64,000 nt of DNA, taken from Psilocybe cubensis. Its lineage: Eukaryota. Location: contig CM038999.1 in assembly GCA_017499595.2 (NCBI GenBank), positions 2,666,001 through 2,730,000 on the forward strand, written 5' to 3'. The notes under the pieces were generated by a model. It was not told the origin of the DNA and did not search any database. It saw only the letters and a list, made by a program, of their open reading frames with translations. Positions within the stretch are counted from its first letter, which is position 1; every line of letters begins with the position of its first letter. The translations under genes and the position numbers were made by a program. Shown here piece after piece: positions 2,653-60,068 of this stretch.

Positions 2653-3395
2653 ATGTCAACTAACAGTCAGCTCGTTCGCATTTCTCTCTTGTTCTGTGCC
2701 CATGACGCGCGTATCTCTCGTTGTCGCGACATGACTCGACTGCATATTACGAATCTGGCGTTCTGGACGTTGGGTGGATTGTGGACTCAGGCTGGTTGTT
2801 CTTGTTTGCGGTCCTCATGGCCGCTGGTCTTTTGTTTTGCATGGTGTTCTTTGTGAGTGCTATCTTCCTGTCGACAGTGGACGGGGCTGAAGACGTTGTG
2901 TTTGAATAGATCATAATGTTCTCTGATTTGGAGTGCGACTATATTAACCCTATCGACCTGTGCAACAAACTAAACCAAGTGAGTTGGTCGGTCTGTATGG
3001 GTGTGGTGAGGCTGATTGTGTGCAGTTTGTTCTCCCCGAGATTGGTGCACATACAAGTCTGGCTACATTATTCCTGCTTTCTGGCCAATGGATTGCTTTC
3101 TTGCTCAACGCTCCACTGGTTGTTTACAATGTCCACAAGTAATGTCATACGCATGTGTGCATCGGAATGGCGCTGATTCCCTTTGTAGAGTTCAAACCAG
3201 GGGGCATATGTACGATGCGACAGAGATATTCCGCTCATTATCAAGACACAAGCAGGAGACATTTATCAAGCTTGGATTTTACTTGCTGTCGTTCTTCTAC
3301 TACCTGTATAGGTGCGTCGAGCCACTGGCTTCGGTGGGAATATCGCTGACGGGAAGTGCAGAATGATTGTTGCTTTGATTGCAGAAAGCGAATAG
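2653..3395 (+). CDS. ERV14: Cornichon/Erv14 ER cargo receptor, paralog 2 (tandem)
   Basis: Spliced product ..WLFLFAVLMAAGLLFCMVFF-IIMFSDLECDYINPIDLCNKLNQ...YDATEIFRSL...FYYLYRMIVALIAESE*. Same intron positions as paralog 1; first exon (ATG 2653) is inferred. Confidence 0.9.
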
Positions 3396-3899
3396 ACATA
3401 TATTCCACGGAGGGATCTGATCTACATACAGTAGTTGTTTTATGCAATTGATGTAAACGAGATGTACGGAACCACCGACCCATCCTCTCTCAACCAATTC
3501 CAAGAGACGACAGTGGGTGCTGAGACGTCCGGTTTTTCAGGACACGGCCTGACACTCGAACAACCGCGTAGACAATCCAACAGTGTGGAATGGACGGTCA
3601 TGAGCAACATGGGGAAGATTATGGCCGTGCCGCCGCACAAGTTTTTCATTTGCCTCGACGCTCGTTTTTATACCTACTGCCCGTGAGAATATTTAGGGCA
3701 GGTCACATGCACTTGTAAATCTCCATTGAGCTTCAGCATCTGCATGCCCTCTGTTCTCCTGATACAGCTTCTTCCATGCTCGTCTGCTTTGTCCGCCAGC
3801 GCATACTGTGTGTGTCGTGTGGTCTGTTTGCATAAATATCAGTTCTTGTAATATGCAAGTTCATATTCCGCTACCGGATATCTCTTGGTACTTCCTTCC

Positions 3900-43949: not shown

Positions 43950-44826
43950 ATGGTTCAGGTCAACCTCATTCGACCCCAGGATCCATATTTAAACATACTT
44001 TTTCATCTAGGGCAGGGCAAAACAGACACGGAAGTTCGCAACGGTTAAGCGGATGCTAAATCCCAATGACATCCGACTGTGAGTAACACCTTGCATTGCT
44101 TTACTCTACGACAAACTTCTAAGAGGGCTTATTCTTCATTAGTAAAGAAAATCAGCTGAAGCAGAAAAAGAAGGAGGAAGAAGAAAAGGCGAAGGCCGTT
44201 CGACGAGTGTACGTCTATATCGCTACTTCCAATATTGCCGATGGATGCTCACTTTATTGCAGACCGCAGGTTGCCTCATCCCTATTTTTCCAACATAATA
44301 CAGCGCTTGTCCCTCCTTATCGAGTTTTGATTGATACCAACTTCATCAACTTCAGTTTGCAAAATAAACTTGAGCTTATTAGCGGCATGATGGATTGTCT
44401 GTACGCCAAATGTAAGCATACCTACCAGAACGATGCCTTACAAATGGAGAAAACTAATTTAACTCAACTTTAGGCATACCTTGTGTTACAGACTGCGTCA
44501 TGGCAGAGTTAGAAAAGCTGGGTCACCGATATCGTGTCGCTCTCCGGTATGCCAACAAGTCATTTTTATTATTCTCACTAATCATCCAATGCATCTACAG
44601 AGTAGCCCGAGATCCTAGATTCGAACGTCTTCGGTGTTCGCATACGGGCACTTATGCTGATGATTGTCTTGTACAGCGCGTGACTGCCCACAAATGCTTC
44701 ATTGTCGCGACTTGTGATAGGGAACTTCGTCGCCGAATTCGACAAATACCGGGTGTGCCACTGATGTATATCGTGAAGAAACGGTACGCAATCGAACGAT
44801 TGCCTGACCAGGGCGCTCCGAGTTAG
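43950..44826 (+). CDS. FCF1: rRNA-processing PIN-domain nuclease Fcf1/Utp24
   Basis: [62 protein letters not shown]. Confidence 0.95.
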
Positions 44827-51100: not shown

Positions 51101-54100
51101 AATTCGGAGGTGATTGGAATAGCAGAGGTTGATGAATCGCCCATGTCCTCAAGGCCAGGAGTTGAGCGAATGTCTTCATCATTGCCCTCAATATTTCCGA
51201 CAGTGGCTAAATGTCTCTGCATATCTATATACAAAATAGGTCAATCCTATTCGGGATGCCAAAGAAATTCTTATACCAGTTATAGTAGCAGTGGAAGGTT
51301 CGTGGGCTCGAAGCATTGAGTCAATATCTGAATCGGCTCCAAAATCGCCTTCAGTGGCTACTTCATCGACTCCAGAAGGGTCCGTCTCTGCCTCTGTATG
51401 GCCTGCGCCCTCTCTTTCTTGCGGTGTTTCGGAGTCCACCTGGGTTTTATGACGAATGCTATCCACTGTCGTAGTTATGTTAGAGGCTACATGGCTTTGC
51501 TCTGTACCTTCTGCAGGCGGGTCCTTAGAGGTTGAGTCGGTCATCTCCATTCGAGGGGCACTTTCCGTCGCCATCAATTCGTGCGAACGTCTTTTTGAAT
51601 CTACGTTATCAGCTCCCAATGGACGAGGGTTCAATTGCCTGTGCCCTTCTAAAGTAACATTGTTATCTAAATATATATTATAAATTATGTGATAATAATG
51701 CAAGAAGTGTCACCGACCTGATTGTTCATGAAAAATATCGGGTTTAATTTTGGAGGGTTGTAATTGGCTTTCTCCTGTTTCCGCTTCGAAATTCCTGTCA
51801 GACGCAGAGGCTTCTGGCTCTTTGCTATCATAGGAATTAGACAAGGCCATGGGAATGTCTTCGTTGAGTTCATCCAATTCATGCGACGCTTCCTCACATG
51901 CTTGACCTTGTTTGTGTGGTCCTTCATGAACTGGGGAATGCCGGAAATTATAAAAGCTCCCCACAGCTGCATGTTCCTGATTAGCAGGAGACAAACTATG
52001 GTCTTCTTCATTGTCTGAATCATCTACAGCAATGACTTCTGCGTCTGTAGGAATTGGACGGCTTTGCGATGGAGGAACAAACAGATTGGTCGAGGGAGGC
52101 AAAATAGTTCCTTCATCCCTATCCTCTCTTACATCCACTTCGTCGTCATAAACACCCTCCGTGTTCTCTTCTGAGGGCCCCTGACTTGGAGTAAGGGCAC
52201 CTGGCGTCAAAAAATTGTCAATATCGTCTTCTACTCCATGTGTACCTGAAAGGAGGGCTGGATCTACAGGAACACCAGGCGTCGCACGAACTTCCCCACC
52301 GGAATAATAATCTTCTGCGTATGTCTGTGGCCCGGTCCAGGGGTCCTGAATTTCAACAGGGATGTCTTCATTTGTGTTTCCGTCAGGGAAAGCTGTCGCA
52401 GAGGAGCACTGTTAGAAAGTGTAGCAATGAGTGAACAAGACAAGAGAATTACATGTATTATCGCTGGGTGGCTGAGTTTCTTCACTAGGATGCTTAGGCG
52501 CAGTGTTTGATTTGAGTTGCTCAACATAGTCGACATCCATCGGCCCCATATAGTGGGCAGAAGTATGCGTTCCTCGTGGTAAGTGGATTGAGCCACCTGC
52601 ATAGAAATCTTGAGCATATATGCGAGAACTTTCCCAGGGATCAACAATGTCAACGGGGCGCTCGAGACGGATATCGTGTGGGGGAAAAGCTTGTAGTAGT
52701 TTTGAGTAAATTGGACCATAACAATAGGTCAAAAAAGCAGGCTCACAAGTGTCATCCTCATTTCGCTGCTCCATGCTAGAATCAATGCTTGCCTCTCGAC
52801 GGATATTAGCTTCGGTTTCTCCGTCAAGCGGTCCTAGATGGTGGGCATCTAGTTTAGCCCCTGTAGGAATACGAATATCTCCACCTGAATAATAGTCTTC
52901 CGCATAAGTACGTGGACCTTCCCATCGATCTGGGAGCTCGATGTGTCTGTCCTGATCTGGATTCGTGAACGATTTTGGAGGGAATGCTATAAATTCATGG
53001 TCGATTATTATCGTCAGTCAACGGAAGGAAATAGACATACAAGTATCGTTTTGGGGAGGTTGTATTTCCTGTATCTCGTCATCTTCTTCTTCATCGGCTT
53101 CGGCATCAGCATCAACCACGTCGTCGCCTTCGTCATCTTCATATTGGGTGTCCGGAGAATGTCGAATTTGCTGACGAAGATAAAGTTGGGATGTCCCAGG
53201 TCGTTCTTCTCGCTCCAGCGCTTGCTCTTCTTCTTCATCATACTCGTCGTATCCGCCAGAGCCCTCTTCACCTTCCTCCTCCTCCTCGTCTTCAAGGGGT
53301 TTCTTTCTAGTTTTATGAAGGGAAGAAGGCTGATCTTCTTCCGACAACTCTTCATCATCAACCTCTCCATCACTATCCGAGTCTATCTCTATGATTTCGT
53401 CGACTACCGCTTTTGCGGGACGGGGAGGTTCTGATTCTTCCTCATTATCATATTCTTCGTCGTCGTCAAATTCCTCATATTCAGCTCCTTCTTCATGATC
53501 AAGTCCCTCCTCGTATTCCTCGTCTTCGCTAACATATTCCTCTTCTTCAGTAGCCACATCATTTGCCCTCGAAGATTGATCAATTGACTGAAGATATCGT
53601 GAAGATGGTTGTCCCATGTCTCCAGAGTAAGGTTCTTCATAATGTTCTCCCTCTTCTTGTTCCCCTGGACTTTGGTCCTCGTCACTGTCTTCCAAGACAG
53701 CCACTGACAATTCGACCTCTGCAGCTTCTTCGGCATCTTCTTCGTCAGATGACACGATTTCAATAGGCTGCATGCTATTTCCCTTGCCTAATCCAGGTCC
53801 TTCGCGAGGATCGCGCGCCTTGCCCTTGCCCGCGGCCCGCCTGGCTTTGATTTCAGCAAATGAGTCGTCCATAGTTTCGTCATATAGTGCATCATCATCA
53901 ACGTCCCTATAGTGTTGAAGCTCTGGTCGAGATCGAATGAGGTTGCGAGATTTATTCAAGCTATGGTCGTTTGAATCTAGTTCCTCGTCGTCTTGGCCAA
54001 GAGCGCGTTTCAATGCTCCTGTGATGCCACCAATCCACGCGTCAAACTCGGGCTGAGTGAATTTGTCAAACGGATTATGAACTGGAGGTCGAAGAACGCT

Positions 54101-54190
54101 TGTTTTTGAGTTCATGTGAGAAGAAGCAGAAAAAGGCGTAGAGTGGGGCGCTGAGGGTATCCGAGGAGTAAATTGGTACGGGGCCGACAT
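48154..54190 (-). CDS. Very large acidic, mostly disordered hypothetical protein
   Basis: Chain of long same-strand ORFs (53018-54307, 51710-52392, 51188-51703, 50602-51234, 49917-50657, 48154-49647) joined by GT-AG introns. Globular-looking islands NPFDKFTQPEFDAWIGGIT and TRSHCRYHRISLP..FLVPGCSL. Confidence 0.78.
52281..52986 (-). repeat. Three tandem exon-encoded copies of a ~25-aa motif (D-x-W-x-GP-x-T-YAEDYYSGG)
   Basis: IELPDRWEGPRTYAEDYYSGGDIRIP (exon 52986-52747), VDIVDPWESSRIYAQDFYAGGSIHLP (exon 52689-52453), VEIQDPWTGPQTYAEDYYSGGEVRAT (exon starting 52392). Confidence 0.85.
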
Positions 54191-54741
54191 CTGGGTGTGT
54201 GGCAAAGGATTTAACGTGTTTCTGAGGGAGAAGGTTACGTGCGAATGAAGGTAATTGGATTGCGCCGTTGAGATGAGTATGGAGGTGTCCGCGGGGAGTA
54301 AAGGCAATTAGGAACAAGACATTGTATTGCACAAAAGGTGACGATTATGTCGCTGTGTGCATGTGCCCGGGCCTGTACATCTGACTTCCAAATTTCTCTC
54401 ACGCACTGAAGGATTGGATATTATGCGTCGGAGTTTGAAAGCGCGTCGCGCCAATATTGCCATCTCAATTTCATCTTGCACTTGTAAGCTTATCCAGAGA
54501 CGCTGAGTGATTGGTATTGGTTATATTTCACTGGTCCAGTAACACAAAACTAGTCTCAAAAACATTTGTGACGCTGAGTGAACTCAGATTCAGAAAACAG
54601 CAAATGCGACTAGATCAGATCTAACCGGCATCACGGCCCGCTAATTATCTGAAGGTAAATAATCTTCTTGTCGCACCTTCCATTTCTTTCTAACAAGTCT
54701 CATTGCCTAAACATCCTAGGGTTACCTCCAACATTCCCCAC

Positions 54742-57700
54742 ATGCCCAATATGCCTCCCGATAAAAAACCAAGCAAAACACCTTCTTCATCCAAGGATCT
54801 CATCCCAGTTAATGGAAAACGAGAGCTTTTAGCAAAGTCTCAGCCCAAGCGAGAGGATAGGGGACCAAAACCCACGACTTCAAAAGCCCTTGTCCTCCGC
54901 AACGGGAAATATGGATCTCAAGGAACTGGTGAACTGATTCATCTGGGAAGGATGACCGGTCGCGAAAAGTTAGATCTTTTGGCAGGTATGCGAATAAGCT
55001 TCATTCTCCTGTCAATACTAAAGTTTCCCGATTAACATTGGGGCAGACAATCTCGTCCAGGAGTCTAAGAAAGCGTTTCTTAACCCATTCCGCCTTGAAA
55101 AATGCCTCAAAATTGCAGAATCTCAGTGTGACGGTTTGTCTGACTGTGTCTAAAAAGTAAATCATCTACTTACTATTACTTTTAGCCTATGTTGATGATA
55201 TCGCCAAGCTACGAGATCCGGACCTATTTCGTTATGCTATCGAGTCAGAGTTAAAAGCCAGAACGGAGCCGACGAGAAGTGATACTCGCAAAACCCCATC
55301 TCATGTTGCCAAAGTAGTTGCCACAAGGTGCGAGTTTAGCGCGCGCAGTAAAATTAACCCGCTAATATTAAAAATTCGGATGTACATCATATAGGGTACA
55401 TAATGCGTACATGCTTGCTTCTGCATGGAAACTCGCTTCGGACATCTTGATCCAGATGACTAGCGATGGACTACGAGATAGCAATGTCAAAACAATGCTT
55501 CAGAGTAACTCTAACATGAGAAACCAATATTTAGCGTTGTACGATATTGTTGACGAACTAGTGATGATGTGCCAGGATAGATTTGCCGTTCTAGCAACAA
55601 CAACTCGTGCGTTGGCTTGGATATAACCTTTCCCTCCAGGAAACAATTAACTCCCTGCCCCTCAGCCCATTATGCAAAATATTTCAAACTCAAAACGACT
55701 GAAGGCGCAGATCCATCCGAAACTCAGTATGTGTTCGACTGGGCGGATTTGCGTAAAGCAGCAGATTCTTTTCTTGATTCTATTATCATCGAGCTATGTT
55801 TTCCGCGGGGAGCATACCCTAAGGCAATACTTTATCGGATTCTCCACGACTCCATTGAAGAGGCTCCCCGTGAAACCAAACGTTTTCCACAAGAACTCTG
55901 GAATGCTGTGGGCGATCTCTCGGTGCGTTATTTCTTTATAATTCTCTCAAGTCGCATTCGAATAAAGGCATAGAACTGTGTCGAACTACAAGAAATATTG
56001 TCAGCACCATTGTTCGGACCCGAGGGAGAGGCATGGCTAAAGAGTCCTCGACAAATGCCGGATGAATATGAGGCTTGGATTGATGCTCAAATATACTCTA
56101 GCAGGGCTTCCGAGCTGTTCTCCTCCTTCAAAGATACCATTTACCCGCTAGAGAGAACCAGAAGACCGGAAGTCATAGACAAGTTGTGGAATCAAATTGA
56201 CCAGGTATATTTCTTTATAAGTCAAAACAAACAAGTTTAATAACATCAATACTATACCACAGAACTATGTTTCTATCTCTGGGGAGCATATTGACAAACT
56301 ATGGGGATTAGAGGAGGTAATTAACGTGAAGCCGCAATGGTCTGCCTTTGCAGTCGTACCTGGAGGATCAGATTTGGACGGATATAGTCCTAGTAGTGTT
56401 AGAGGTGCAAAGAAGAAGCCACTCGCTATAACTGCTGGAGATGAATCCAGCGACGACTCAATGCCTGGACTCCAATCTGTCTCGAACACCTCAGACGATG
56501 ACGACGACGACGATGACGATAGCGAGTATTCCGAAGATGAGTACAATAGCGATGGATACAACACCGACGAAGAAGACGAACTCCGTGAATTATACAAAGA
56601 AGCTATGAATGCAGCTCATGAGGCTGATTGGTTTGATACTTCCAACACACCCGCGGGTATTGACCCTTTCCTTCAGGAAGACGATCGTAAGGGAAACCCA
56701 TTTTTGAAAATTTTGGGTTCTCTGAGAGGTTTGTCCCGTGTTGTCTGGGTTTACGCCAATTTGACCCATATAATCAGGGAGAATGTTCTCTTCAAGTCCA
56801 AAGTTGAAGACGACAACAAAGACAGAGCCTCGCTCTGGTCCAATTCGCGGAGCCTTCAGAGCTACTCCTAGCGGGGCTCCCAAATCCATTCCTAAAGCTA
56901 TGCCCCCGAAGCCGGCACCGGTACCTACAACGCCAGTTTCTCCTGCTGCTACTCCTGGTCAGTCCGTTGCACCACTTCATAAATATTAGAGCTCATTGAT
57001 TTCCTATAGCTGCTGCTTCAAAAAGCCAGAAGGCAACAGTGGAAGAAGTTGAGGATGAAGAGAACATTGCCATGGCTGCTGCTGCGGCCAAGAAGAAAAA
57101 GAAAAAGTCGAAGAAAAAAAAGAAACCTGCTACTCCTGAAATCCCACCTTCTTCTTCTCCTCCTTCTGCAGTGTCAGTGCCGAGTCCGGTCATTTCGTCC
57201 GCGACACCATCATTGAAGAAGTCTGCTTCGGTTTCTTCCAATGCCTCCAGCGTCAAGACATCGACGCCATCAATCCCTTCGGCGTTTATGTCTTCGACAA
57301 GTACCCTTCCTATTGGGGAGACAACTGCTCAGTCAGCCCATTCCTATCTTCAGTCCCTCAACATTGGTACAGAGAAAAAGCTTAAGAAGCGTCCCGACCA
57401 CGCATCGATATTCTCGACCAGTTCCGATATCAAGAAACCGTCTGTATTTTCGAAACTATCTGGTAAAGACAAGGAGAAGAATAAAGAAGACGAGATGAGT
57501 GCCGCGAAGCGTAGTTGGTTCAGCAAACTCAGCAAAAAAACTTCGGTCCTAATGCATCAAATGCTGAAGACTGATGAAGACAAGACAGGCGGAAGATCGC
57601 CTATGAAGTGGGAGCAATTCTTAAAGGTTCGTCTGTCTATGGTTCTTGATGCATCGCATTGCGTAATTTTGACTGACTGTATGAGTAGCTTATGAGAGAA

Positions 57701-58002
57701 ATGGGCTTTGAATATGATCCTAGCACAGCTGGTTCCAGTGTTCGCTTCGATCCACCAAACAAAGCCGACAGGGTAAGCTATCTGACAGACTTGAATTCTA
57801 TTTGCTTTTCTCACAATACTCTCATTAGCCCATTACATTCCACAAACGTACGGCTCACACTTTTGGTATCTGGATGCTGCATACTCACATTGTATTGATA
57901 GCCCATCCTGATCCTACCCTTCAGCCAATCATGTTGAAGGAGTTCGCGAAAAAGCTGAAACGATATTATGGCTGGAACGAAGACGATCTTCTGAGGATAT
58001 GA
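54742..58002 (+). CDS. Hypothetical protein: helical N-terminal region, acidic and Lys-rich linkers, C-terminal HicA-like domain
   Basis: Multi-exon. Last four exons give MKWEQFLKLMREMGFEYDPSTAGSSVRFDPPNKADRPITFHKPHPDPTLQPIMLKEFAKKLKRYYGWNEDDLLRI*. Confidence 0.8.
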
Positions 58003-58330: not shown

Positions 58331-60068
58331 TTAATTCTTCAATGTGGGTTTGCCCATCATTCGCCTCCCCTCCTGAACCTTCTCTGGGCTTTTCTCTAAT
58401 TTACCAGACAATACTTTGATTTCTCCCCGCAGCTTGTCCATGAACTTAGTCTTCGTTGCTGAGCCACCCTTGGTCTTCGCCAAAACAGATGAGTCCGTGC
58501 GGTGCTCATCAGCGATCTCTTTGGATATAATGGGGGTGTTGCCATCTGTGCCCCCGGTATTAACCTGCGCGGTAGGAGTAAGGTGTCCAACGGTTTGTTG
58601 AGCGTTGACGTTACGTTCCGCAGCAGGGGTATCGAGTCCTTGAACCACCTTTGCAGCCCATGCACCAGTATCATCAGTTGTCGGTGGATTGTTGACGGTA
58701 GGATGCATAGAAGAGGTATCAGTTCCAGTAACAGCTCCTGCCAACGCGCCAGTCTCTGCAGAAGTAGGCGCATAGCTGTTTGCATTAGTTGCGACGTCGC
58801 TAACGTTCTCCTTTCCCTTTCCAGATGGTTCAGCATGACCGTCGTGCCCAGGTGTCGCCACAGTGGAACCTAAAGAGTCCTGATGACTGAACGGTTTCGA
58901 GTCTGATCGAGGTTTAGTAGACTTTTCAACTGCGGCGAAGTGCTCTCTACCTCTGGTGACTGGAGGAGAATTGACATGGGGCGCAGCAGACTTGTGAGCT
59001 GACTTGGAAACAGGTGGAACGGTAAGAAGGTGAGGTTCCTCAGGATGATGTTCAAACTCGGGTCGATCGGCCTTGTTGCTGAAATCAGAGTGCTCTTTGT
59101 CCTGAATGGTATGATTTCGCTGACATGAATCTGCAGCTGATGACGACGTTTTCATCGTCCCATCTCTGTTCCGCACATCTGCTTCCTTTGTGGAACTGGT
59201 CGCAGTTCCAGCATGGCTCCAGGTGTCAATGCGGCTACCCGCAAGCGTCCGAGTGCTGGCGTCAGTGCTGGCCCCGTCGTACTGTTTGGACACTGTGCTC
59301 GCAGCTCCGCTTCTGTTGTTTGAAATACTATAATCGATGCCAGTAGTACCAAATCTGGGTAAGGTGAGGCTATTGTCCTGAGGTCTTATAGGTTCATTGT
59401 TATCTTGGGTTGTCGATTTGCTTGGATTCGGCGTATCGCCAACAAGTCTTCGGTCCTCGATCACTCTTGTACCAGTAATGCCGACGGATTCTAGAGTATT
59501 CTTCTCCTTTGAGCTATCTTCATGGACCTCAGGTCCAGACGGGGTGTATGAATGGGATTCAGTAAAAGTTTCATTTCTACGGGCTGAGCTTTCGTGATGC
59601 TGAGAGGCTTCGTCTCCTTGTCGAGGTGATCCGTTCGTAGCTACGTGTGCATTAGCGCAAATCAACTCAAGTTATTTATCACTCACGAAGATATGCCGCT
59701 ACAGATTTAGGTAAATATCCTCCAACAACTTCGCCTGCGCTGTATACATAATCCTTCGCTGTTTCTAATGCACTTGAAGCGGCTTCCTTGACGTAATCAG
59801 CATCTCGACTCAAACTACTGACGTGCTCAGCCTCTTTGGTTTGGGGAAAAGCTCCAGGAAGCCGTTCTCCGGGTGTCGTTGGGTTGCTTGCGTGCCCACC
59901 AAAAGGCCTGTCTGCAGGATAAGATTCGGGTACGACAGGACCTAAAGCATTCAGCGAAGATGAAGTAGGTCTGTGAACCTGTCCGCCTCTGTCATCAATG
60001 GCATCGAAAGAATGAGTATCTTCCGTCATCAGACTGGTGTGGTTGGTGTTGACAATATTGTCGGCCAT
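58331..60068 (-). CDS. Hydrophilic disordered protein with CsbD/LEA-like helical ends
   Basis: Exon 60068-~59686 (LETAKDYVYSAGEVVGGYLP), one intron, then a long Ser/Thr/His-rich exon ending KFMDKLRGEIKVLSGKL...VQEGRRMMGK. Confidence 0.72.

Follow-up and report, generated by a model that had tools for sequence, protein, structure and literature searches.

Introduction

HicA is a small toxin of prokaryotes and phages that is always paired with HicB in the available excerpts of reviews (PMC11594946, PMC2701414), and its reported size range is 50–100 aa in a single domain (excerpt of PMC11594946). A conserved feature of HicA is the Gly(-Ser) turn between β1 and β2, as described in the accessible part of PMC6159526. 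The catalytic His located in β2 after Gly-Ser has been proven in the HicA of S. pneumoniae, Y. pestis, B. pseudomallei, and E. coli (excerpts of PMC6159526 and PMC11594946), where it corresponds to His36, His28, His24, and His23, respectively (excerpt of PMC11594946). Bacterial single-chain HicA–HicB fusions also exist and are about 200 aa long with HicA at the N-terminal side, according to the accessible part of PMC4826407.

In this study, a gene of Psilocybe cubensis was analyzed within the window, namely the whole stretch of 64,000 nucleotides of DNA under study. An earlier note on this DNA had proposed a HicA-like RNase domain at the end of a long fungal protein and had named the exon junctions, the fold, and the conservation of the HxPHP histidines as points on which the proposal could be checked. 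Here, the HicA domain belongs permanently to conserved proteins of fungi that have no antitoxin, a new eukaryotic form of this toxin domain. No study of fungal HicA domains was found in the freely accessible literature; the main text of PMC7501697 contains no HicA.

Gene structure and probable transcription

Joining the exons by coordinate gave a tail reading ...SPMKWEQFLK / LMREMGFEYDPSTAGSSVRFDPPNKADR / PITFHK / PHPDPTLQPIMLKEFAKKLKRYYGWNEDDLLRI*, with the stop codon TGA at 58000–58002, which reproduces the four-exon tail as the earlier note had written it. The spliced CDS (Table 1) is identical, letter for letter, to the database protein P0001 (879 aa, Psilocybe cubensis), and all 11 CDS introns are GT..AG introns of 49–67 nt; the description of a long, intron-rich fungal protein was correct.

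Table 1. Features of the Psilocybe gene and its product (positions in the window).
Feature	Position	Strand	Remark
5'-UTR intron, 65 nt, GT..AG	54653..54717	+	skipped in X1 contig only
Whole CDS, 879-aa protein	54742..58002	+	12 exons; codon-by-codon exact match to P0001
Exons 1–6	54742-54985, 55047-55133, 55186-55327, 55395-55606, 55666-55922, 55974-56204	+	
Exons 7–12	56263-56728, 56778-56957, 57010-57626, 57689-57772, 57829-57847, 57902-58002	+	
N-terminal domain, predicted all-helical, residues about 65–415	54934..56334 (introns included)	+	AlphaFold2 pLDDT mostly 80–96
Middle region, predicted disordered, residues 419–760	56344..57470	+	pLDDT mostly <50
Acidic tract DDDDDDDDSEYSEDEY	56497-56544	+	wider acidic run 56449-56580
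Poly-Lys tract	57090-57125	+	near-invariant across 42 orthologues
Two conserved helices before the domain, residues 761–792, ...SWFSKLSKKTSVLMHQML...	57471..57566	+	helices from the model
First part of the domain, at the end of exon 9, MKWEQFLK	57603..57626	+	predicted start of helix α1; spliced translation, model
Intron 9/10	57627-57688	+	GTTCGT..AG, 62 nt
Domain exon 10	57689..57772	+	predicted rest of α1, β1, Gly-Ser turn (57731-57736), β2
Ser829	57737-57739	+	occupies catalytic-His position of studied HicA toxins
Intron 10/11	57773-57828	+	GTAAGC..AG, 56 nt
Domain exon 11, 19 nt, PITFHK	57829..57847	+	predicted β3; contains His845 (57841-57843)
Intron 11/12	57848-57901	+	GTACGG..AG, 54 nt
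Domain exon 12, (P)HPDP, YGW, stop TGA	57902..58002	+	predicted helix α2; contains His848 (57904-57906)

All 11 CDS introns were skipped at GT..AG in one contig each of the runs X1 and X2, which are public runs of one study whose RNA nature is only guessed, and the basis is the contig joins and not depth. Every exon junction of the CDS is accordingly present in intron-less contigs, while the unspliced locus is present in run X3 from another study. The intron-less contigs of X1 and X2 suggest that the gene is transcribed, and the gene is truly fungal and intron-rich.

The same data bear on the question of whether the domain could be an artefact, that is, bacterial contamination or a chance HicA-like frame stitched onto a fungal gene. 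The bacterial affinity of the domain, and nothing else, would speak for this. The three spliceosomal introns within the domain, skipped exactly in contigs of two runs, speak against it, and the earlier argument from introns against contamination is borne out. The architecture also recurs across many genera: of 66 full-length homologues, 65 carry the domain, and the single exception is a gene model cut short at the exon 9/10 junction. Among the fragmentary gene calls of other samples, 13 begin right after the exon 9/10 junction and nine split near the exon 10–12 junctions, which suggests that intron positions are shared across samples and further disfavors an artefact. The probability of such an artefact is practically negligible.

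A C-terminal HicA-family domain by profile and predicted fold

Exon 10 by itself (28 aa) matched Pfam HicA_toxin (PF07927; COG1724) with E=0.01, and residues 807–865 of P0001 scored 38.3 bits against this family (cut-off 27; E=1.5e-9; profile positions 1–56 of 58). For comparison, bacterial toxins scored 37.3–38.5 bits, E. coli HicA 30.9 bits, and three further orthologues 35.5–38.8 bits; among three homologues picked for their missing precomputed label, two scored 19.4–19.7 bits and one had no match. The domain is also better conserved than the full-length protein, with a mean column identity of 64% versus 44%.

The AlphaFold2 model of the domain has an α-β-β-β-α arrangement (pLDDT 81), and the five best rows of a Foldseek search against the PDB, representing four entries, were all HicA (1whz, 6g26 with two chains, 5yrz, and 4p78), with a probability of 0.82–0.99 and an E of only 0.07–0.26. 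A structure scan of 48,161 chains placed HicA in the first four ranks, namely 1whz (Z 8.1, rmsd 2.2, 70 aligned), 4p78 (Z 6.3), 6g26 (Z 6.1), and 5yrz (Z 5.8), with E. coli HicA at Z 3.8. Neither sequence nor profile searches of the PDB recovered a HicA entry at E<=10, and the single-domain sequence search returned one ephrin row (E=0.3), which was attributed to chance. No dsrm family was seen in the Pfam scans at E<=0.1 and no dsRBD entry among the listed Foldseek and structure-scan rows, and a distant relation to the canonical dsRBD may exist. By sequence profile and predicted fold, which is dsRBD-like, the last 75 residues (805–879) truly belong to the HicA family, as the earlier note had expected of both the C-terminus and its folding.

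The window contains one copy each of the HicA-like domain and the N-terminal domain. No HicB-family match was found among the 68 stop-to-stop frames of at least 75 aa lying outside the gene at 43.7–64.0 kb, a survey that short exons could escape, and Pfam found no HicB-like region within P0001. The claim that no HicB gene lies nearby is upheld within this scope.

The closest bacterial relatives found

The earlier note had named a class of bacterial HicA with the pattern GSRV.F...H.PHP, and this class does exist. A pattern scan of prokaryote genomes yielded four proteins of 82–87 aa with GSRVKF...PISIHKPHP, and an overlapping or adjacent downstream gene was present at two of the three inspected loci of such proteins. 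At one of these, on a contig of Haemophilus parainfluenzae (locus L003), the 87-aa HicA at 2938–3201 is followed by HicB at 3203–3697 (PF05534, E=1.6e-11). The subclass is large, with 2672 proteins at E<=1e-3, and those with a name are mostly annotated as HicA family toxin; the annotation 'type II toxin-antitoxin system HicA family toxin' occurs in Pasteurella, Sulfurimonas, and others. In the 120 bacterial members listed, GS-x-V-[KR]-F was present in all 120 and xH[KR]PHP in 119, and none had a His after Gly-Ser.

Alignment of the fungal profile with the bacterial profile by hhalign gave a probability of 97.3% (E=2.2e-11, 68 columns), and 97.5% (E=5.7e-12) with 42 fungal and 120 bacterial rows; the aligned part covers 66–68 columns at 27–29% identity. 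In these comparisons, the bacterial HicA with GS(R/A)V(K/R)F...H(K/R)PHP is the closest relative found for the fungal HicA domain. No experiment on the GS(R/A)VKF...HKPHP subclass was found in the literature searched. Homology of bacterial HicA reaching the basic helices upstream of the domain was considered and dropped, as the profile comparison ends before this segment.

Distribution and history in fungi

Copies of the domain are common in both Basidiomycota and Ascomycota. In a sequence library with clusters at 50% identity, 278 matches were obtained at E<=1e-10, and 17 of the 20 representatives looked up carried an organism name, all of them fungi from these two phyla. Every named fungal protein looked up is called 'hypothetical', and the PF07927 label is already attached automatically to the fungal domain in databases. 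The earlier treatment of this gene as a singular find hence does not hold. The orthologue is near-universal in the sampled Agaricomycetes and under strong constraint. Arrays of two to four partly decayed copies of the domain occur in Mycena and Peniophora among the matches listed (the best 150 of 1749), and in single proteins the domain is joined to BTB, RING, or LSM14 domains.

A tree over 81 columns combined 56 fungal copies (random, at least 68 aa) with E. coli HicA and 45 bacterial proteins taken from the 120. A branch set all fungal copies apart, but its support was negligible (SH-aLRT 1.7), and with 57 of 99 branches unresolved and a single outgroup on a branch of 5.4, the tree has no bearing on the number or direction of transfers. 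A single bacterium-to-fungus transfer would be allowed by the sequences.

Conserved histidines and likely RNase activity

The Psilocybe copy reads AGSSVRF and FHKPHP. Across 204 fungal copies, the Gly-Ser turn is well kept (G827 in 193, S828 in 194), and position 829, the canonical site of the catalytic His, is Ser in 146, Ala in 37, another residue in 21, and His in none. The following β2 residues are V830 in 189 copies, R831 in 159 (Lys in 7), and F832 in all 204. In the HKPHP segment, H845 is found in 190 copies, K/R846 in 188, P847 in 188, H848 in 191, and P849 in 195, in agreement with the conservation of HxPHP that the earlier note had put up for checking.

The canonical His is missing, but about 93% of fungal copies retain the two His residues of HKPHP, so that RNase activity of the domain is likely rather than proven. 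Where His845 would lie with respect to the canonical active site is deduced only from the predicted hairpin topology. A weak alignment, with a probability of 1.5%, matches His848 to the His in the 'RHP' motif of E. coli HicA, and this residue may therefore be structural; the hhalign comparison of the fungal profile with E. coli HicA alone, which gave this value, was uninformative.

The domain may also be a non-catalytic remnant, in which a dsRBD-like fold binds RNA or a protein partner and anchors the protein to a ribonucleoprotein, for instance the ribosome or a pre-ribosome, the conserved His and Pro residues being structural. The loss of the proven catalytic His from all 204 fungal copies fits this possibility, as do the basic character of the domain (pI 9.0) and the description of the HicA fold as an RNA-binding fold in the available excerpts of PMC6159526 and PMC2701414. 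Moreover, a near-universal, constrained, and apparently transcribed orthologue in Agaricomycetes suits a binder better than a toxin lacking its antitoxin. However, the residues under the strictest constraint are those common to the bacterial proteins adjoining HicB, and since those proteins lie beside HicB antitoxins, they must be toxic. Two near-invariant His residues across Ascomycota and Basidiomycota also exceed what a binding surface usually needs. We consider a non-catalytic remnant possible yet doubtful, and RNA cleavage is retained in the reading preferred below.

Regions upstream of the domain

The N-terminal domain is common to paralogues in Mycena and Grifola and has no Pfam family match. 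The fold matches obtained for it were weak and were not accepted: for the full model, Foldseek returned nothing at E<=0.001; the full scan listed helical bundles, some of them ESCRT-III-like, at Z 7.3–8.2, a range common for helical models; and 'Ipa protein', from an Ascomycota cluster of the Atlas, scored 0.78, below the meaningful level. NCBIfam holds no family for P0001. In the pre-domain helices, F777 and Q790 are invariant among orthologues. A search of the PDB with the full-length profile returned only low-complexity rows of Lys runs (MMTAG2, NMT1, MetAP2, and ZNF622; E 0.008–0.55), which were not taken as evidence of ribosome binding.

The acidic and poly-Lys tracts are present where the earlier note had placed them. 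It had suggested that they could make the protein a self-inhibited effector in cell death, antiviral defence, or RNA quality control. In the form considered here, which also takes in non-self recognition, a toxic effector would be held in check by the acidic tract or the N-terminal domain in the manner of HicB. The C-terminal location of the domain in 69 of 70 representative proteins of at least 300 aa is compatible with such an effector, and so is the expanded and shuffled family, with the Mycena and Grifola paralogues sharing the N-terminal domain, the Mycena and Peniophora arrays, and the fusions with BTB, RING, and LSM14. The pTM of the full-length AlphaFold2 model (0.62), which is above expectation for the N-terminal domain alone, hints weakly at packing of the ordered parts of the 879-aa protein against each other; a complex prediction of residues 60–420 with 757–879 gave 0.00 in two runs and, being made without controls or alignment, has no weight either way. 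Against the effector, the Agaricomycete orthologue is near-universal with a slowly evolving domain, Pfam matched P0001 to none of the domains typical of defence, such as NLR, HET, or pore-forming ones, and nothing ties the acidic and Lys tracts to the domain. Acidic and Lys-rich tracts are, besides, common in nuclear and nucleolar proteins, and linkers of this type occur in nucleolar and ribosome-associated proteins. Self-inhibition of a toxic effector is quite improbable on these grounds, and none of the results supports a role in cell death, antiviral defence, or RNA quality control.

Discussion

The reading that we prefer, and hold to be somewhat probable, is descent of the domain from the HicA subclass above, with an RNA-binding and probably RNA-cutting function at the C-terminus of a conserved fungal protein. 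The simplest origin would be an old bacterium-to-fungus transfer of a HicA with GS(R/A)V(K/R)F...H(K/R)PHP, after which the domain may have become fixed at the C-terminus of fungal proteins without the HicB antitoxin. The Psilocybe protein consists, in order, of the predicted helical N-terminal domain, a predicted disordered linker with the acidic and poly-Lys tracts, two helices, and the HicA domain. The domain presumably still binds RNA and probably cuts it, and His845 and/or His848 may stand in for the β2 His, because bacterial toxins and fungal copies alike retain these residues. The remainder of the 879-aa protein may set the site of action and the RNA target.

The near-universal orthologue in the sampled Agaricomycetes and its strong constraint point to a housekeeping role for the Psilocybe gene rather than to one in conflict. 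A bolder version, which we regard as unlikely, is that a HicA captured from bacteria founded a large fungal family of antitoxin-free, C-terminal RNA-cleaving modules in which the catalytic His moved from β2 to the adjacent HKPHP segment. The Psilocybe protein would be the one-chain equivalent of a toxin–antitoxin pair, a conserved endonuclease for mRNA or rRNA gated in cis by the helical domain or the charged linker, and the arrays in Mycena and Peniophora would be conflict offshoots.

If the domain is active, fungi would have domesticated a toxin-type RNase whose cellular RNA targets could be searched for directly, and the domain would provide a natural test of whether the catalytic His of the HicA fold can occupy another segment. 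The same test would settle the chemistry of the large bacterial subclass with its 2672 matches. If the domain is inactive, it would clearly exemplify how a toxin fold can be put to new use as an anchor that binds RNA.

Eukaryotic use of nuclease domains found in toxin–antitoxin systems is established for the PIN domains of SMG6 and Fcf1, the functions of which are known; the window itself contains, at about 44.4–44.8 kb, a gene that we take to be Fcf1. These PIN proteins offer a possible functional parallel, in which a compact RNase fold of toxin type is attached to extensive regulatory regions and serves RNA processing or decay, although the PIN fold is unrelated to the HicA-like domain and no homology is claimed.

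Within HicA, the bacterial HicA–HicB fusions share with the fungal protein the placement of a HicA domain inside a larger polypeptide, but the fungal protein carries HicA at the C-terminus and has no HicB-like region. The studied HicA toxins (E. coli 6HPB, B. pseudomallei 4C26/6G26, Y. pestis HicA3 4P78, and S. pneumoniae 5YRZ, with T. thermophilus TTHA1913, 1WHZ, also in the structure comparison set) have the Pfam family, the predicted fold, and the Gly-Ser turn before β2 in common with the fungal domain. They are ribosome-independent mRNA interferases neutralized by HicB and have the β2 His after Gly-Ser, whereas the Psilocybe domain has Ser there, and their similarity to the fungal domain is below the reach of sequence and profile searches of the PDB. 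With 879 aa and 12 exons, P0001 also falls outside the 50–100 aa of small single-domain HicA.

The bacterial HicA with GS(R/A)VKF...HKPHP shares the Pfam family, both motifs, and the missing canonical β2 His with the fungal domain. Its members are stand-alone proteins of 80–89 aa that are extended by a basic stretch at the N-terminus and paired with a HicB gene, whereas the fungal domain ends an 879-aa protein without HicB, is interrupted by three introns, and has a longer β2–β3 loop and a C-terminal YGW extension.

Gene structure and splicing

The HicA-toxin-like tail was read directly from the sequence as the last part of a gene on the + strand, and joining its four exons by coordinate with a script gave ...SPMKWEQFLK / LMREMGFEYDPSTAGSSVRFDPPNKADR / PITFHK / PHPDPTLQPIMLKEFAKKLKRYYGWNEDDLLRI, followed by a stop codon. 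When the upstream exon 55668-55922 was used as a query, 96 proteins were returned, the first being P0001, an uncharacterised 879-aa database protein from Psilocybe cubensis that is 100% identical and whose residue numbering is used here. A codon-by-codon walk demonstrated that 12 exons, separated by 11 GT..AG introns 49-67 nt long, encode P0001 exactly, confirming the four-exon splice of the tail proposed in the earlier note.

In X1 and X2, two public sequencing runs of one study that are not recorded as RNA and only guessed to be so, one contig of about 4.9 kb each covers the gene and skips every coding intron, 11 in total, at GT..AG; the three that interrupt the domain are among them, and the proposed exon junctions were matched there. 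The X1 contig also lacks a 65-nt intron of the 5' leader. The simplest reading of these contigs is spliced mRNA, and they give no expression level, strand or transcript ends. In X3, a run of a different study, the locus is unspliced and in one piece. The X1 and X2 contigs extend beyond 58400 and may span both the gene and the convergent frame, which starts about 330 nt past the stop codon, a span that cannot prove a single transcript. No second copy of the gene was found within the window.

Features of the gene, its product and neighbouring frames
Feature	Position	Strand	Remarks
Gene encoding P0001	54742-58002	+	12 exons
3' end with HicA-like domain	57603-58002	+	four exons
Intron inside domain	57627-57688	+	GT..AG, 62 nt
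Intron inside domain	57773-57828	+	GT..AG, 56 nt
Intron inside domain	57848-57901	+	GT..AG, 54 nt
Acidic tract	56497-56544	+	within wider acidic run 56449-56580
Poly-Lys tract	57090-57125	+	
All-helical domain	about residues 65-415		full-length model, confident
Disordered stretch	residues 419-760		full-length model; acidic and Lys tracts
Two helices	residues 761-792		full-length model
HicA domain	last part, after helices 761-792		full-length model
Fcf1 frame (PIN-domain rRNA-processing factor)	44458-44823	+	PF04900, E=1.1e-29; unremarkable neighbour some 10 kb upstream, with no apparent connection to the HicA-like gene
Repeat-motif frames	51713-53017	-	long frames 51710-52411 and 52412-53017; motif ~...W.GP.TYAEDYYSGG.IR... 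three times; no Pfam family matched
Divergent upstream neighbour	53021-54307	-	429-aa frame, very Glu/Asp-rich; no Pfam match
Convergent frame	58334-59671	-	446 aa, Ser/Thr/Pro-rich

Identity and predicted fold of the tail

The assignment of the tail to the HicA family, as claimed in the earlier note, is supported by both profile and structural comparisons. The 28-aa exon by itself matches Pfam HicA_toxin (E=0.01), and the spliced protein reaches 38.3 bits (E=1.5e-9, cut-off 27, profile positions 1-56 of 58), equal to the bacterial toxins scored alongside (37.3-38.5 bits) and above E. coli HicA (30.9 bits). An AlphaFold2 model of the domain, built from an alignment of 20 domain sequences, has a helix, three strands and a helix (pLDDT 81), an order repeated in the full-length model. 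No HicA was found in the PDB by sequence search, and the top five PDB rows in Foldseek were HicA chains from four entries, namely 1whz, 6g26 (two chains), 5yrz and 4p78, with probabilities of 0.82-0.99 and E values of only 0.07-0.26, as expected at 80 residues. In an exhaustive structural scan of 48,161 chains, 1whz ranked first (Z 8.1, rmsd 2.2, 70/70 residues aligned), followed by 4p78 (Z 6.3), 6g26 (Z 6.1) and 5yrz (Z 5.8), with E. coli HicA ninth (Z 3.8).

The full-length model (pLDDT 64.5, pTM 0.62) falls into four parts. Pfam and NCBIfam gave no family in P0001 besides HicA, and structure searches gave no convincing relative of the N-terminal helical domain. The acidic and poly-Lys tracts do lie on the same chain as the HicA domain, and the Lys run, the motif preceding it and the helices preceding the domain are nearly invariant among 42 orthologues. 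Such charged tracts typify nuclear, nucleolar and ribosome-associated proteins; the matches obtained for them were low-complexity only and were discounted as evidence. The ideas of self-inhibition and cell death raised earlier are unsupported.

Distribution in fungi

Among the 96 homologues, 66 are at least 700 aa long and span many Agaricomycete genera (Agaricales, Boletales, Polyporales, Jaapia, Punctularia). The precomputed PF07927 label is present in 57 of these 66, and our own profile detected the domain in 65, the exception being a gene model that stops short at the exon 9/10 junction. Searching 1.84 billion representative proteins with a profile yielded 1749 matches at E<=1e-3, of which 278 reached E<=1e-10 and 36 reached E<=1e-30; all of the best 150 of the 1749 have the fungal motif form. 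Names were checked for twenty of these 150; three had none, and the 17 named were all fungi: Agaricomycetes (Mycena, Grifola, Peniophora, Wolfiporia), Tremellomycetes (Kwoniella), Dothideomycetes (Fulvia, Hortaea, Zymoseptoria, Pseudocercospora), Sordariomycetes (Canariomyces), Leotiomycetes (Claussenomyces) and Pezizomycetes (Kalaharituber). All are hypothetical or uncharacterised, bar one UniRef 'Clr5 domain-containing' entry.

In 69 of 70 representatives at least 300 aa long, no more than 35 residues follow the end of the domain, and the N-terminal helical domain is common to 32 representatives, including paralogues in Mycena and Grifola. Nine representatives carry two to four copies. Chains with two to four HicA-like copies include P0097 (Mycena capillaripes, 514 aa), P0098 (Peniophora, 706 aa) and P0134 (Fulvia fulva, 1137 aa), and histidines are lost in some of their copies, e.g., FCKPHP and FYKPHL in P0097. 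Other partners were rare among 34 further proteins scanned: an LSM14/Scd6 Sm domain, BTB and a RING finger, once each (P0129, P0113 and P0157). These fusions could be gene-model artefacts; the LSM14 fusion, if its model is right, would tie the HicA-like domain to mRNA repression and decay. In Wolfiporia cocos, the orthologue WOLCODRAFT_138330 (P0080) and the 690-aa paralogue WOLCODRAFT_138329 (P0148) share the N-terminal and HicA domains, and their consecutive locus tags suggest tandem duplication.

Bacterial relatives and origin

The domain alignment served as query for a pattern scan that took one genome from each prokaryote species and gave four proteins of 82-87 aa from Desulfobacterales, another deltaproteobacterium and Haemophilus parainfluenzae, all containing GSRVKF...PISIHKPHP. 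In two of three inspected loci, the toxin gene overlaps the gene that follows it or lies directly against it, and in Haemophilus this following gene is HicB (PF05534, E=1.6e-11). Profile-profile comparison linked the fungal and bacterial sets with 97.3% probability (E=2.2e-11), and with 97.5% (E=5.7e-12) when 42 fungal rows were set against 120 bacterial ones. The bacterial group comprises 2672 proteins at E<=1e-3; among the best 120, those named are mostly 'HicA family toxin', GS-x-x-[KR]-F without His after Gly-Ser occurs in 120/120 and xH[KR]PHP in 119/120. The bacterial HicA pattern given in the earlier note is therefore real. The closest relatives found for the fungal domain are a distinct bacterial toxin subclass, whose members are presumably toxic because antitoxin partners are kept.

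A quick tree was built from E. coli HicA, 45 bacterial proteins and 56 fungal copies; the latter fell on one side of one branch, with negligible support and a very long outgroup branch. The simplest reading is a putative single old transfer from bacteria to fungi. Among fragmentary gene calls from other samples, 13 begin directly past the exon 9/10 junction and 9 break close to later domain junctions, which suggests that the domain intron positions are common to several species. In the orthologues P0053 and P0119, additional residues follow ...DR and ...FHK, exactly where introns interrupt the domain, and both look like retained-intron gene models.

Conserved histidines and possible activity

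An automatic PF07927 label already stands on these fungal proteins in databases. The non-subscription literature searched and passages of two reviews yielded nothing on fungal or other eukaryotic HicA domains. The domain described here is a eukaryotic member of the HicA family, fused to a larger protein, without an antitoxin and of a non-canonical histidine class. The fungal case is solid and testable, yet the family to which it belongs is widespread and already flagged in databases.

According to PMC6159526 and PMC11594946, tested HicA toxins have a sole conserved histidine in beta2, behind a conserved Gly and Ser, which is essential (His36 in S. pneumoniae, His28 in Y. pestis HicA3, His24 in B. 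pseudomallei, His23 in E. coli). We counted the 204 fungal copies spanning the motif region, from 256 matches in 215 of 246 proteins. The Gly (G827, 193/204), Ser (S828, 194/204) and F832 (204/204) are kept, and position 829, the canonical histidine site, is Ser in 146, Ala in 37, another residue in 21 and His in none, the latter being likewise absent in the bacterial sister subclass. That the domain is a remnant that binds RNA is the main rival reading, a rather doubtful one. The HKPHP histidines, H845 (190/204) and H848 (191/204), are conserved, as the earlier domain reading required, and are retained in both fungal and bacterial groups. Since beta3 is hairpinned to beta2 in the predicted topology, His845, at the end of beta3, would lie near the beta2 start where the canonical histidine sits. 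Together, these two points make an RNase with a relocated histidine the most likely reading, which we hold as marginally probable; RNase activity itself is plausible and unproven. The histidine after Gly-Ser in beta2 is the single residue by which the studied HicA toxins are defined, and both the fungal domain and its bacterial sister subclass are without it.
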